The translations under genes were made by a program, and so were the position numbers. A model generated the notes under the pieces. The model made no database searches and was not told where the DNA came from. It was given only the letters and a program-made list of their open reading frames with translations. 21,396 bases of DNA. Source: a virus (Duplodnaviria; Heunggongvirae; Uroviricota; Caudoviricetes). Below are positions 1 to 16,954 of the stretch, one piece after another; position 1 is the stretch's first letter; each line of letters begins with the position of its first letter. The DNA lies in the IMG/VR virus record IMGVR_UViG_2531839486_000009. One strand, written 5' to 3'.

Positions 1-308
1 GAAAAGGACGAGTAGTTCAGGCGGAAACGCTGGAAGCAGCGGGCCATGTGCTATTGCTAACATCATTACCGGAAGATGAATATTCAGCAGAGCAAGTGGC
101 TGATTGTTACCGTCTGCGATGGCAAATTGAACTGGCTTTTAAGCGGCTCAAAAGTTTGCTGCACCTGGATGCTTTGCGTGCAAAGGAACCTGAACTCGCG
201 AAAGCGTGGATATTTGCTAATCTACTCGCCGCATTTTTAATTGACGACATAATCCAGCCATCGCTGGATTTCCCCCCCAGAAGTGCCGGATCCGAAAAGA
301 AGAACTAA
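1..308 (+). CDS. IS4-family-like DDE transposase, C-terminal fragment (5' end outside window)
   Basis: Reading frame is open from the window edge to TAA 306-308. Translation ...ETLEAAGHVLLLTSLPEDEYSAEQVADCYRLRWQIELAFKRLKS... carries Y-x2-R-x3-E-x6-K (YREK), the signature of IS4/IS5-type DDE transposase C-termini. Family from motif only; exact IS not identified. Confidence 0.55.
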   Translation, partial: KGRVVQAETLEAAGHVLLLTSLPEDEYSAEQVADCYRLRWQIELAFKRLKSLLHLDALRAKEPELAKAWIFANLLAAFLIDDIIQPSLDFPPRSAGSEKKN

Positions 309-534
309 CTCGTTGTGGAGAATAACAAAAATGGTCATCTGGAGCTTACAGGTGGCCATTCGTGGGACAGTATCCCTGACAGCCTACAAAACGCAATTGA
401 AGAACGCTAGGCATCGTCTTAACGAGGCACCGAGGCGTCGCATTCTTCAGATGGTTCAACCCTTAAGTTAGCGCTTATGGGGAGAATCCCTCGCCACCTC
501 TGATGTGTCAGGCATCCTCAACGCACCCGCACTT

Positions 535-633: not shown

Positions 634-912
634 ATGGCGCACGATACCAAATTACACAATTCTGATGATTCTGCCGTCTTTGCCAGCAGGCACGGGCGGC
701 GTTCCCGCACTTTCAAATCTGACTGGTTCCAGCATCCCCCATGCACTGAAGAACAGGCCGAGTGGCTAATTCAGTGCTACCGCAGACACGGATACGAGAT
801 TAAGAAAGCCCTCAGCCTCGATTATCGTCACTGGATAATCTCCGTCAGGCTTCCTTACTCCGAGCGCCCACCGCGTCCGTCCCGCACATTCCAGCAACGC
901 ATCTGGAGGTAA
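634..912 (+). CDS. hypothetical protein (92 aa)
   Basis: ATG 634 is the first start downstream of the 535-561 terminator in the frame of tool ORF 505..912. Stop TAA 910-912 abuts GGAGG plus GTG 914 of the next ORF. No motif recognised. Confidence 0.35.
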   Translation: MAHDTKLHNSDDSAVFASRHGRRSRTFKSDWFQHPPCTEEQAEWLIQCYRRHGYEIKKALSLDYRHWIISVRLPYSERPPRPSRTFQQRIWR

Positions 913-913
913 C

Positions 914-1348
914 GTGCGGGTATTACTTCGACCTGTTCTGGTACCGGAACTCGGGCTGGTGATCGTTAAGCCGGGCCGTGAATCCATGCCGGTATTCCAC
1001 AATACCCGGGTACTGGTGGAGCCGGAACCGAAAAGCATGCGTAATCTGTCGTCCGGGGTCGTTCCTGCCGTTCGCCAGCCGCTGGCGGAGGATAAATCAT
1101 TACTGCCATTTTTCAGTAACGCACGGGTGATTCGTGCTGCTGGTGGTGCTGGTGCATTGTCTGACTGGCTGTTGCGCCATATTAAATCCTGCCAGTGGCC
1201 ACACGGCGATTATCATCACAGGAAACCGTCATTCACCGTTATGGTACCGGCGCAATGGTGTTGTGCTGGCACTGCGACAACCAGCTGCGGACCAGACTCC
1301 GAATCACTCGGCAACTTGCTCACAAAACCTGTCAGCATGGATGATTGA
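914..1348 (+). CDS. hypothetical protein; possibly N-terminal part of a split DUF968/YdfU-like gene
   Basis: GTG 914 preceded by GGAGG at 905-909 with 4-nt spacing. Overlaps the following reading frame by more than 200 nt. Confidence 0.45.
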   Translation: MRVLLRPVLVPELGLVIVKPGRESMPVFHNTRVLVEPEPKSMRNLSSGVVPAVRQPLAEDKSLLPFFSNARVIRAAGGAGALSDWLLRHIKSCQWPHGDYHHRKPSFTVMVPAQWCCAGTATTSCGPDSESLGNLLTKPVSMDD

Positions 1349-1958
1349 CGTCATCGGTCACGCAATAAGCGGTACGCAGGAGCGTGAATTATCTTTGGCT
1401 GAATTATCCTGGTGGGCGGTCCGCAATCAGGTGGCGGACGCGCTACCGGAAGCGGTATTACGTCGTTCGCTGGGGTTGCGTGCAGAAAAAATCCGCTCAA
1501 TGTACCGTGAAAGCGACATCGTACCGGGAGAGCAGACCGCCACCAGCATACTGAAACAGCGCACAAAAAATCTTGCGCCGCTGCCTCACGCCCACCAGCA
1601 ACAGAACCCACCACAGGAAAAGACGGTGGTCAGCATTGCCGTTGATCCTGAGTCTCCGGAATCTTTCATGAAACGACCTAAACGTCGCCGCTGGGTTAAC
1701 GAGAAATACACACGCTGGGTGAAGACACAGCCGTGTGCGTGTTGTAGTAAGCCAGCCGACGATCCCCATCACCTGATTGGTCATGGTCAGGGCGGAATGG
1801 GAACAAAATCCCACGATATTTTCACGCTACCGCTGTGTCGGGAGCATCACAACGAGCTTCATGCGGATCCGCTGGCGTTCGAAGAAAAGCATGGTTCTCA
1901 GGTTGATTTAATTTTTCGTTTTCTTGATCACGCCTTTGCAACTGGCGTGCTTGGGTAA
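1341..1958 (+). CDS. DUF968 (YdfU-like) prophage protein, Cys/His-rich C-terminal region
   Basis: Translation ...KRPKRRRWVNEKYTRWVKTQPCACCSKPADDPHHLIGHGQGGMGTKSHDIFTLPLCREHHNELHADP... fits my recollection of the DUF968/YdfU family found next to Q in lambdoid prophages. Start placed at ATG 1341, which overlaps the stop of the previous ORF; the tool ORF opens at 1134 in the same frame. Confidence 0.55.
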   Translation: MIDVIGHAISGTQERELSLAELSWWAVRNQVADALPEAVLRRSLGLRAEKIRSMYRESDIVPGEQTATSILKQRTKNLAPLPHAHQQQNPPQEKTVVSIAVDPESPESFMKRPKRRRWVNEKYTRWVKTQPCACCSKPADDPHHLIGHGQGGMGTKSHDIFTLPLCREHHNELHADPLAFEEKHGSQVDLIFRFLDHAFATGVLG

Positions 1959-1970
1959 AAGAGGTGACTG

Positions 1971-2345
1971 ATGCTCATAGATTTGGTTTTACCTTACCCG
2001 CCGACGGTGAACACCTACTGGCGACGCCGTGGCAGCACATATTTTGTCTCAAAAGCCGGTGAGCGTTATCGCCGGGCTGTGGCGCTTATTGTTCGCCAGC
2101 AGCGGCTGAAATTAAGCCTGTCCGGAAGGCTGGCGATAAAGGTGATTGCAGAGCCACCGGATAAGCGTCGTCGCGACCTGGACAATATCCTGAAAGCACC
2201 GCTGGATGCGCTGACGCATGCGGGAGTGTTAATGGACGATGAGCAGTTTGATGAAATCAATATCGTTCGTGGTCAGCCAGTATCTGGTGGACGTATGGGG
2301 GTGAAGATTTACCCCATAATGCATGAAGAGCAGGTCAAAAAATGA
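1971..2345 (+). CDS. rusA: Holliday junction resolvase RusA
   Basis: 124 aa; AAGAGG RBS before ATG 1971. Translation contains ...PPDKRRRDLDNILKAPLDALTHAGVLMDDEQ..., matching the conserved RusA core (PDRRRRDLDN...DALT.AG...DD) as I recall it from E. coli RusA. Confidence 0.9.
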   Translation: MLIDLVLPYPPTVNTYWRRRGSTYFVSKAGERYRRAVALIVRQQRLKLSLSGRLAIKVIAEPPDKRRRDLDNILKAPLDALTHAGVLMDDEQFDEINIVRGQPVSGGRMGVKIYPIMHEEQVKK

Positions 2346-3163
2346 AACTGGAAGATTTACCGAAATACTACTCCCCAAAATCCCCTTGCCTGACCGATGC
2401 ATCGGCCTCAACGTCAAAAGATGCGCTGAGTATCACTGATGTGATGGCCGCGCAGGGCATGACACAGAATCGGGCTGAGATGGGGTTTTCTGCGTTCCTG
2501 GGGAAAATGGGCATCAGTATGAATGACAGGGCGCGGGCAACAGAATTACTGGCAGATTATGCACTCAGTCGGTGCGATCGTGTGGCGGCGTTGAGAAAAC
2601 TTCCGGCAGAAATAAAACCGTTAGTGATGCGCATTATGGCTTCGTACGCTTTTGAGGATTATGCCCGCAGCGCAGCGAGTAAAAAGCAGTGCCCTTGTTG
2701 CTATGGGGAAAAATTTATTGAAAGCGTAGTTTTTACAAACAAGGTCCAGTATCCGGATGGTAAGCCGCCGGTATGGGCAAAGTGTACGAAAGGTGTGTAT
2801 CCGTCTTACTGGGAAGAATGGAAAAAAGTCAGGGAGGTGGTAAAAGTTGCCTGTCCGGAGTGTGGCGGAAAGGGTGAGGTTTCCACCGCCTGTAAGGATT
2901 GCCGTGGGCGTGGTGTCGCCATTCATCGTGAAGAGTCGGTAAAACGTGGTATGCCTGTTATCAGAGACTGCCAGCGTTGTGGTGGTCGTGGCTATGAAAG
3001 ACTACCATCAACGGAGGCATTTAATGCTATATGCGAGGTGACAAACCAGATAACACGCGCGTCATGGGAAAAAACAGTTAAGAAATTCTATGATGCGCTG
3101 GTGACCCGGTTTGATATTGAAGAAGCATGGGCTGAGCGGCAGTTAAAAAAGGTAACTAGGTAA
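2342..3163 (+). CDS. late-gene antiterminator Q-like protein with zinc-finger motifs
   Basis: 273 aa; start overlaps rusA stop (ATGA). Sits immediately upstream of a pR'-like promoter and tR'-like terminator, the invariant position of Q. Contains CPCC plus three CxxCxGxG motifs. N-terminus MKLEDLPKYYSPKSP... resembles Q/QuuQ-type proteins as I recall them. Confidence 0.65.
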   Translation: MKLEDLPKYYSPKSPCLTDASASTSKDALSITDVMAAQGMTQNRAEMGFSAFLGKMGISMNDRARATELLADYALSRCDRVAALRKLPAEIKPLVMRIMASYAFEDYARSAASKKQCPCCYGEKFIESVVFTNKVQYPDGKPPVWAKCTKGVYPSYWEEWKKVREVVKVACPECGGKGEVSTACKDCRGRGVAIHREESVKRGMPVIRDCQRCGGRGYERLPSTEAFNAICEVTNQITRASWEKTVKKFYDALVTRFDIEEAWAERQLKKVTR

Positions 3164-3306: not shown

Positions 3307-3382
3307 GGCCCTTTAGCTCAGTGGTGAGAGCGAGCGACTCATAATCGCCAGGTCGCTGGTTCAAATCCAGCAAGGGCCACCA
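3307..3382 (+). tRNA. tRNA with CAT anticodon (tRNA-Ile2-like or tRNA-Met)
   Basis: Cloverleaf read by eye: acceptor GGCCCTT/AAGGGCC, D-arm GCTC..GAGC, anticodon loop CTCATAA, T-arm GGTCGCTGGTTCAAATCCAGC, CCA encoded. Resembles E. coli ileX-type tRNA from memory. Confidence 0.85.
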
Positions 3383-3483: not shown

Positions 3484-3560
3484 GCGTTGTTAGCTCAGCC
3501 GGACAGAGCAATTGCCTTCTAAGCAATCGGTCACTGGTTCGAATCCAGTACAGCGCGCCA
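3484..3560 (+). tRNA. tRNA-Arg (anticodon TCT)
   Basis: Acceptor GCGTTGT/ACAGCGC (one G-U pair), D-arm AGCTCAGCCGGACAGAGC, anticodon stem-loop ATTGC-CTTCTAA-GCAAT, T-loop GGTTCGAATCC, CCA encoded. Confidence 0.85.
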
Positions 3561-4471: not shown

Positions 4472-4807
4472 TTATGGACTTTGTTGTTTTAGTCCATAAG
4501 GACATATTTGCAGAGTGCAACGGTTATTAAAGCATTCATTCAATACGTTATCTGTATTTGTAGGGCATTCCTGGCTGTTTTTGATTAAATTCCAGAATGT
4601 TTTATTGAATGGTACTACGTTGTAAATGGTTACAGGTAGCACTTTGTTATTGAGCATGATGCCTGTGTGAGTCAGTGTAAATATACTTTCAGGAGGTAAG
4701 AAAGCATCCGATTGATACCAGATTATTAATTTTATTTTACTCCATATGACTGAAAAAGATATTCCGCATGATGGCTGGATAACTGTATCAATCACAATCC
4801 ACTTCAT
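4472..4807 (-). CDS. hypothetical protein (111 aa), orphan antisense moron gene with Cys-rich C-terminus
   Basis: Minus-strand ORF with a near-ideal RBS (AAGGA, 6-nt spacing, from + strand ctttcctt at 4811-4818) and a plausible AT-rich promoter containing TATACT upstream. C-terminal C-x10-C-x4-C-x4-C cluster. Confidence 0.6.
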
Positions 4808-7219: not shown

Positions 7220-7513
7220 TTATTGTGAGCAATACACACGCGCTTCCAGTGGAGTATAAATGCCTAAAGTAATAAAACCGAGAAATCCATTTACGAATGT
7301 TTGCTGGGTTTCTGTTTTAACAACATTTTCTGCGCCGCCACAAATTTTGGCTGCATCAACAGTTTTCTCCTGTCCAATTCCCGAAACGAAGAAATGATGG
7401 GTGATGGTTTCCTTTGGTGTTACTGCTGTCGGTTTGTTTCCAACAGTAAACGTCTGTTGAGCACATCCTGTAATAAGCATTGCCAGAGCGGCAGAAAACA
7501 ACATTTTTTTCAT
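7220..7513 (-). CDS. bor: Bor lipoprotein (serum-resistance moron, Iss family)
   Basis: Start at the internal MKKM of tool ORF 7220..7561. Translation MKKMLFSAALAMLITGCAQQTFTV...ETITHHFFVSGIGQEKTVDAAKICGGAENVVKTETQQTFVNGFLGFITLGIYTPLEARVYCSQ is near-identical to lambda Bor as I recall it; lipobox LITGC. Confidence 0.9.
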   Translation of the reverse strand: MKKMLFSAALAMLITGCAQQTFTVGNKPTAVTPKETITHHFFVSGIGQEKTVDAAKICGGAENVVKTETQQTFVNGFLGFITLGIYTPLEARVYCSQ

Positions 7514-8038: not shown

Positions 8039-8389
8039 ATGCCCCCACGAATCCCACGCGCCTGCCGTAAGCGTGGATGTGCAGGTACAACCACAGACAG
8101 TTCTGGTTACTGCGATAAACATCGTGGCGAAGGATGGGTACAGCATCAACGCGGACTGAGCCGCCACCAGCGTGGCTATGGCTCGAAATGGGATGCCATA
8201 CGTGCGCGCATACTGAAGCGTGATAATCATCTGTGTCAGAACTGCCTGCGCAATGGGAGAGCCGTTGAAGCCAGAACTGTGGACCACATCATTCCGAAAG
8301 CTCATGGTGGCACGGATGCAGACAGTAACCTGCAGAGTCTGTGCTGGCCCTGTCATAAAGCAAAAACAGCGCGCGAACGCATCAATTGA
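8039..8389 (+). CDS. HNH endonuclease (terminase-associated)
   Basis: ATG 8039 with GGAG RBS; tool ORF opens at 7940. Translation has Cys-rich N-terminus and the HNH core ...VDHIIPKAHGGTDADSNLQSLCWPCHKAKT...; sits directly upstream of terS/terL as in HK97-like cos phages. Confidence 0.85.
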   Translation: MPPRIPRACRKRGCAGTTTDSSGYCDKHRGEGWVQHQRGLSRHQRGYGSKWDAIRARILKRDNHLCQNCLRNGRAVEARTVDHIIPKAHGGTDADSNLQSLCWPCHKAKTARERIN

Positions 8390-16280: not shown

Positions 16281-16652
16281 ATGACTAAAAATATCCGTAA
16301 TCTGGCACTGGCAACGATGTCGGGGTTTCGCCATAAAACCGTTGATGTGCCTGAATGGGAGGGAGCAACGGTTGTGTTACGGGAACCTTCTGCAGAAGCC
16401 TGGTTGCGCTGGCAGGAGATCGTTAAAGCAAAAGATGATGAGACACCGTTATCCGTTGCGGAGCGCGCCCGCCGAAATCTGGAGGCAGATGTTGAACTGT
16501 TCATTGATGTTCTGTGTGATACCGGACTGCAACCCGTATTTTCAGAGGATGATCGTGAACAGGTGATTGCCGTGTATGGCCCGGTGCATGCGCGGCTTCT
16601 TCGGCAGTCTCTGGAACTGATCAGTGATGCCGGCGAGGTTAAAAAAAAGTAG
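16281..16652 (+). CDS. tail assembly chaperone G-like
   Basis: GAGGA RBS 8 nt before ATG 16281 (alternative starts 16266/16272). Ends ...GEVKKK at the slippery A-run; position between major tail and tape measure. Confidence 0.7.
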   Translation: MTKNIRNLALATMSGFRHKTVDVPEWEGATVVLREPSAEAWLRWQEIVKAKDDETPLSVAERARRNLEADVELFIDVLCDTGLQPVFSEDDREQVIAVYGPVHARLLRQSLELISDAGEVKKK

Positions 16653-16954
16653 CGCTTCCGGGGATGCGTTTTCTGATGATGCTGGCGCTCAGGATGGGGC
16701 GCACATTGTCAGAGTTACGCCGGGAAATGTCCGCATCAGAAATCATGATGTGGGCAGAATTTGACAGGTTCAGCCCGCTGGGGGACGAACGGGCTGATTT
16801 CCGGGCTGCCCAGATTGTTTCAGCTGTTTACGGTGCGCAGGGGGTCAAAGTGTCACTGAATGATGCGCTTCTTCAGTGGGAGAAGGAGCAGACAGAAGGC
16901 GCTTCAGATCCATTTGCCGGACTGGAAAACGCGCTTTTAATAGTGTCTCAGTGA
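16281..16954 (+). CDS. tail assembly chaperone G-T fusion via programmed -1 frameshift
   Basis: Tool ORF 16664..16954 is in the -1 frame relative to G and open from 16643; slippery A-AAA-AAG sits at the end of G. Classic G/GT arrangement. Confidence 0.6.
16641..16649 (+). other. -1 ribosomal frameshift slippery site (AAAAAAAAG)
   Basis: Eight A then G immediately before the G stop codon TAG 16650-16652; the downstream frame continues as ...VALPGMRFLMM... Confidence 0.6.

Follow-up and report, generated by a model that had tools for sequence, protein, structure and literature searches.

A DUF968/YdfU prophage gene split between two reading frames in an Escherichia coli draft contig: a probable consensus error at sites separating two alleles

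The DUF968/YdfU family and its intact relatives

Genes of the DUF968/YdfU type (PF06147, PHROG 96) belong to lambdoid prophages, and a distant relative is PdcB of phage P1. The characteristic layout of the family is a single open reading frame (ORF) of about 348–349 codons encoding an N-terminal part together with the DUF968 domain. We analysed a gene of this type in a 21,396-nt stretch of DNA (hereafter the window), in which the layout is broken by shifting frames. The window is one entire contig, APYD01000025.1 (21,396 bp), from the 2013 draft assembly of E. coli P0299438.4 (GCA_000357025.2). This ETEC strain came from a Bangladeshi patient. Its genome was read on an Illumina HiSeq2000 as paired ends from 300-bp inserts, with a reported mean coverage of >200x, and the draft contigs were produced with Celera Assembler (PMC4462620).

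Relatives of the gene were collected from bacterial genomes, viral contigs and sequenced phages. At least 80% of the query (window positions 860–1990) is matched in 3,526 of the 5,426 complete E. coli genomes, and every one among the matches listed is annotated as ‘DUF968 domain-containing protein’. The coding sequence in the relatives examined is 1050 nt long (349 aa). All 80 homologous loci in IMG/VR are uninterrupted ORFs, either of 349 codons (n = 63) or of 348 codons (n = 17). A tblastn search of sequenced phages gave 187 records, and in 173 of them the match extends over 80% or more of the protein. The phage matches listed extend over residues 17–349 or 32–348 in one piece, with identity down to 26%, and the phage relatives include Klebsiella, Salmonella, Hafnia, Edwardsiella and Vibrio phages in addition to PdcB of P1.

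Once the five bases missing from the window (see below) are restored, the gene encodes a protein of 349 aa that belongs to the DUF968/YdfU family by both PF06147 and phrog_96. The latter profile, annotated as ‘HNH endonuclease’, aligns over its positions 1–333 of 334 with residues 1–348 of the repaired protein (E = 1.5e-174). The repaired gene thus shares with DUF968/YdfU genes of lambdoid prophages both the profile match and the genomic position. The relatives are intact, whereas the window as deposited, with its five 1-nt gaps, encodes no full-length product.

Judging from its sequence motifs, the intact protein appears to consist of two parts. The N-terminal part, which is the one disrupted in the window, carries the motif C..H..HH..CxxC. 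The C-terminal part is the DUF968 domain with the motif CxxC...HH...CxxHH at residues 276–320. HNHc_6 (PF16784) scored 22.0 bits, below its cut-off of 26.6, and the PHROG HNH families 131 and 7370 gave weak matches to the repaired protein. A sequence search of the PDB with the repaired protein returned no relative. A putative nuclease function beside the RusA resolvase is plausible.

The gene as deposited and its surroundings

The entire DUF968/YdfU-type gene occupies positions 914–1958 of the plus strand (1045 nt, compared with 1050 nt in intact relatives). Its GTG start (914–916) is the start used by the RefSeq relatives; it is preceded by the Shine–Dalgarno sequence GGAGG (905–909) and by the TAA stop codon of the upstream gene (910–912), so that these elements together span 905–916 of the plus strand. 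Two plus-strand ORFs, both with GTG starts, cover the gene: ORF 1 (914–1348, 144 aa), deposited in GenBank as ENC06159.1, and ORF 2 (1134–1958, 274 aa). The two lie in different frames and have 215 nt in common. The authentic frame of the N-terminal part is kept in 914–1221 of the plus strand (codons 1–102), where frame 0 agrees with the intact relatives up to ...GDYHH. The final 42 residues of ORF 1 are an out-of-frame read-through that ends at an out-of-frame TGA, and ORF 1 has no Pfam match. ORF 2 follows the authentic frame from 1323 on, but not before. Within it, PF06147 (DUF968) is matched over residues 85–271 and over all profile positions (1–171 of 171) with 256.7 bits, the cut-off being 27.8. 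GenBank holds this C-terminal piece as the 205-aa ENC06160.1 (1341–1958, plus strand), which starts at the internal Met145 and contains the whole Pfam DUF968 domain, Cys/His motif included.

Alignment to the intact 1050-nt genes of MLI110, CFT073 and NZ_CM136167.1 revealed five separate 1-nt deletions, all within a stretch of 102 nt (1221–1323, plus strand). Missing are a C after 1221 (gene position 309), a T after 1289 (378), an A after 1297 (387), an A after 1310 (401) and a T after 1322 (414). Each deletion shifts the frame by −1; the original frame is briefly regained after the third, and the net change is −5, which leaves 914–1958 with 348 codons plus one nucleotide. None of the five deleted bases lies inside a homopolymer. 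Four of the five are at third codon positions and the fifth is a common A/G polymorphism. The closest relative, NZ_CM136167.1, is 99.8% identical over window positions 479–21396, and the five deletions are the only gaps in these 20,918 nt. One internal residue distinguishes the repaired 349-aa protein from WP_220405013.1 (MLI110), and three residues distinguish it from WP_047609563.1 (NZ_CM136167.1). Being a mosaic of known alleles, the exact repaired protein is absent from the protein collection.

A preliminary description of this DNA had already noted two ORFs overlapping by about 215 nt in different frames and a total span of 1045 nt, equal to 348 codons plus one nucleotide. It had read them as one DUF968/YdfU gene of about 350 codons, with the lesion inside 1134–1348. 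All of this holds, and the length agrees with the 1050 nt (349 aa and a stop) of the relatives. Alignment to the intact genes placed every frame switch within 1221–1323. What did not survive the alignment is the proposed single +1 indel, since there are five 1-nt deletions with a net change of −5.

The deletions are private to this contig. In the 5,426 complete E. coli genomes, the best matches to 1190–1350 are all 166 nt long and 97.0% identical, a difference that consists of five gaps and no substitutions; the deletion stretch itself is thus free of substitutions relative to these matches. None of 185,579 species-representative genomes (GTDB) contains the 25-mer of the window that spans the first deletion. 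Among approximately 15 billion proteins, the 144-aa product forms a one-member cluster from one contig and no second copy of it was found, nor was the exact 274-aa product of ORF 2 found in the protein collection.

The surroundings of the gene are those of a lambdoid prophage. A small hypothetical gene lies upstream, and rusA (1971–2345) follows directly downstream, succeeded by the gene for the Q antiterminator (2342–3163). The position upstream of rusA and Q is the same in the window and in the relatives, in which the hokD side lies upstream of the gene. At its left end (window 1–478) the contig begins inside an IS4-family transposase gene (PF01609), of which it has the 3′ portion. Homology to related prophages starts at 479, just beyond the end of hokD in the relatives; either the IS has therefore disrupted the left part of the prophage, or the contig breaks off at this element. 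Downstream of Q there are two tRNA genes. The first (3307–3382) has a CAT anticodon and is called Met by ARAGORN, compared with tRNA-Ile in RefSeq relatives; the second (3484–3560) is tRNA-Arg(TCT). Further along are an IraM/PmrD-family anti-adapter gene (4472–4807, minus strand), a Bor/Iss lipoprotein gene (7220–7513, minus strand) and an HNH endonuclease gene (8039–8389, plus strand) directly upstream of the small terminase subunit. The window also contains a genuine two-frame gene. The tail assembly chaperone pair at 16281–16954, composed of G-like and T-like ORFs, has GGTTAAAAAAAAGTAG at the end of its first ORF, with an A-run near 16637–16652; this is the programmed −1 frameshift well known from the G/GT genes of lambdoid phages. 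Beyond 3018, six scattered substitutions separate the window from NZ_CM136167.1, four of which (11248, 12234, 12673 and 17427) are G in the window and T in the relative.

Two alleles and the missing bases

To describe the variation at the missing sites we used 73 distinct alleles of the gene from viral contigs. We denote by A the window's repaired allele and by B a common second allele class, which comprises 12 of the 73 alleles and includes the 348-codon type. Within gene positions 290–429, A and B differ at exactly seven sites (303, 309, 378, 387, 401, 414 and 426). All five missing bases are A/B SNP sites, namely the inner five of these seven, with the A/B bases C/T, T/C, A/C, A/G and T/C, respectively. 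These five positions are also among the most polymorphic in the stretch (non-reference frequency 0.29–0.45 among the 73 alleles). Accordingly, the window aligned to B-type loci displays the same five gaps, and window positions 1217–1333 represent the sequence common to A and B, from which every discriminating column is gone. Five positions drawn at random in this stretch would all coincide with the differences of any one allele with a probability of 1.5e-5 in a simulation and of 4e-5 by a union bound. The lesions therefore show two properties of collapsed paralogues: they are private to the assembly, and all five (5/5) occupy sites that distinguish the copies.

Over the whole gene, A and B differ at 38–44 sites. 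The window has the A base at positions 303 and 426, and likewise at isolated SNPs, for example 576. The deletions lie in an island of low divergence (269–446, seven SNPs) flanked by SNP-dense clusters at 204–268 and 447–487. A hypothetical ‘C’ allele, differing from A only at the five sites, was also considered; it was not found in IMG/VR, and the best match in complete E. coli genomes reached 97.8%. A second allele, if involved, must therefore be of the B class, which differs also at 303 and 426.

The B-type segment is widespread, being present at an identity of at least 99% in 888 of 20,395 complete-genome records, and many genomes harbour two to four DUF968 copies. In the finished genome of E. 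coli 042 both alleles are present as intact copies, and within the interval the two differ at exactly those seven sites; this is the only genome for which the presence of A and B together was demonstrated. Exact look-ups of the upstream 135-aa ORF, the portal protein, RusA and B-type proteins yielded no informative contig from elsewhere in the P0299438.4 assembly or from its sibling isolate P0299438.10, a member of the same clade (PMC4462620).

The window has two patches dense in substitutions relative to NZ_CM136167.1, at 1049–1108 (nine differences) and 1943–2150 (about 20). Both match other alleles (MLI110 and loci L103–L109). The window's RusA allele is one usually linked to B-type DUF968 genes, and its exact RusA protein adjoins B-type DUF968 genes in other genomes. 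The patches may form a mosaic left by natural recombination; alternatively, they hint at a chimeric contig that joins two prophage copies.

Origin of the split

We consider it likely (with a probability of roughly 0.8) that the split is a consensus error of the draft assembly, produced from merged reads of two prophage copies, and is not present in the DNA of the bacterium. The true sequence of the locus would then be that of an unremarkable, uninterrupted DUF968/YdfU gene of 349 codons, situated in the nin region of a lambdoid prophage with the hokD side on one flank and rusA–Q on the other. P0299438.4 would have a second lambdoid prophage with the B allele, and within the gene's low-divergence island reads from the two copies would have been combined. 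At the five discordant columns the consensus may have given no base, a software step that we infer from its outcome. Five dropped columns would mean five 1-nt deletions, which shift the frame by −5 in total and leave two ORFs that overlap. This explanation is favoured by the coincidence of the gaps with A/B sites: the five lie within 102 nt, are private to the contig and come without substitutions, and independent real deletions or random sequencing errors would be expected to miss allele-discriminating sites. Further points in its favour are the abundance of the B allele, the multiple DUF968 copies of many genomes, the A and B copies of E. coli 042, the RusA allele of the window and the short-read draft from which the contig comes.

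The case has features in common with known collapsed-repeat errors in short-read drafts, namely private lesions, an island of low divergence, a multi-copy prophage gene and lesions at copy-distinguishing sites. It also departs from them, as the usual collapse leaves a majority or a chimeric base, whereas here the discordant columns are absent altogether and only at five of about 40 sites. That so few of the roughly 40 A/B differences were lost speaks against an assembly error. So does a recruitment simulation with 100-nt B reads, allowing up to k mismatches, which did not reproduce the observed set of lost SNPs. Consensus indels are, moreover, normally rare at coverage >200x, and we know of no citable documentation of Celera Assembler dropping discordant columns.

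Considering that the B copy in this strain is inferred, that only five of about 40 sites are affected and that the recruitment simulation disagrees, there is some chance, albeit a small one, that the five deletions are real and that the locus is a strain-private pseudogene of a prophage DUF968 gene, which is the leading rival explanation. The N-terminal domain would then be destroyed after codon 102, and at most a 205-aa DUF968-domain protein would be made from ATG 1341 by termination–reinitiation at ATGATTGA. The deletions do stand in the deposited record, annotated as two CDSs; an Illumina consensus at >200x is usually accurate with respect to indels, and decay of cryptic-prophage genes does occur. 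Two other records illustrate such decay. In OY856303.1 (locus L005) an independent 1-nt deletion at gene position 285 leaves the same 205-aa ORF, and JARCEL010000020.1 (L004) has an N-terminally truncated copy that again retains this ORF. The disruptions are at 2853 of OY856303.1 and at 2947 of JARCEL010000020.1, the latter copy being truncated upstream of gene position 379, beside a DnaC-like gene. The OY856303.1 pseudogene thus resembles the window in the gene affected and in the 205-aa C-terminal ORF left, but its lesion consists of one deletion and two adjacent substitutions at gene position 285, whereas the window has five deletions, no substitutions and a lesion on an allele-discriminating site in every case. 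Five deletions outside homopolymers within 102 nt, with no substitution among them and no other indel in 20.9 kb, are unlike neutral decay. In E. coli mutation accumulation, substitutions outnumber indels by about 10:1, and indels prefer runs of repeated bases. Random real deletions would not land exactly on five A/B sites (P ~1e-5), and none of the deletions was found in any other genome or protein record searched. In another reading the deletions, though real, would have arisen in one event, with each of five mismatches in an A/B recombination heteroduplex over gene positions 309–414 turned into a 1-nt deletion. To our knowledge there is no established repair pathway that converts heteroduplex mismatches in this way, and we regard such an origin as very unlikely.

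Explanations in which both frames are functional fare worse. The preliminary description had offered, as an alternative, two translationally coupled genes, the first encoding the N-terminal 144 aa and the second the 205-aa DUF968 protein. The overlap it pointed to is there as described (ATG 1341 overlaps the TGA at 1346–1348), the second piece holds a complete Pfam domain, and PHROGs has a 134-residue family, phrog_11007, that amounts to the N-terminal part alone. This family, of unknown function, corresponds to residues 2–135 of the repaired protein (window 917 to ~1320); some phage annotations therefore contain ORFs for the N-terminal part only, which may result from splits or truncations of a similar kind. 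In the intact frame, the letters of the start/stop overlap ATGATTGA simply encode Met145-Ile-Asp, and the overlap appears when they are read in another frame; the final 42 residues of ORF 1 are found nowhere else. All 80 viral loci are single ORFs, the relatives in thousands of E. coli genomes are annotated as one 349-aa CDS, and the homologues in Klebsiella and Vibrio phages and in P1 (PdcB) match in one piece. No relative has the layout of 144 + 206 aa by which the preliminary description had itself proposed to judge the matter. The lack of any relative with a split layout refutes coupled genes, leaving a genuine pair highly improbable, and equally refutes programmed ribosomal frameshifting or another form of recoding. 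The latter might be suggested by two overlapping frames of one protein family, yet it would require five successive frame changes, there is no slippery heptamer or homopolymer at any of the five sites, and the layout is not conserved in the single-frame relatives; its probability is practically negligible.

Of the three origins that the preliminary description had left open, an error thus appears to be the right one, in the form of a consensus or assembly error at sites that differ between paralogues. A homopolymer miscall, or any error of sequencing chemistry, is rejected, given that no deleted base is in a run. A genuine split is rejected, and a pseudogene is less favoured.

The underlying gene is an ordinary and very common prophage DUF968/YdfU gene, and for biology the split is of little consequence. 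For curation, ENC06159.1 and ENC06160.1 are probably pieces of one intact gene. More generally, single-base gaps situated exactly on sites that differ between paralogues could flag consensus errors in older short-read drafts, and such a flag could be used before the gaps are counted as pseudogenes or ‘split genes’.
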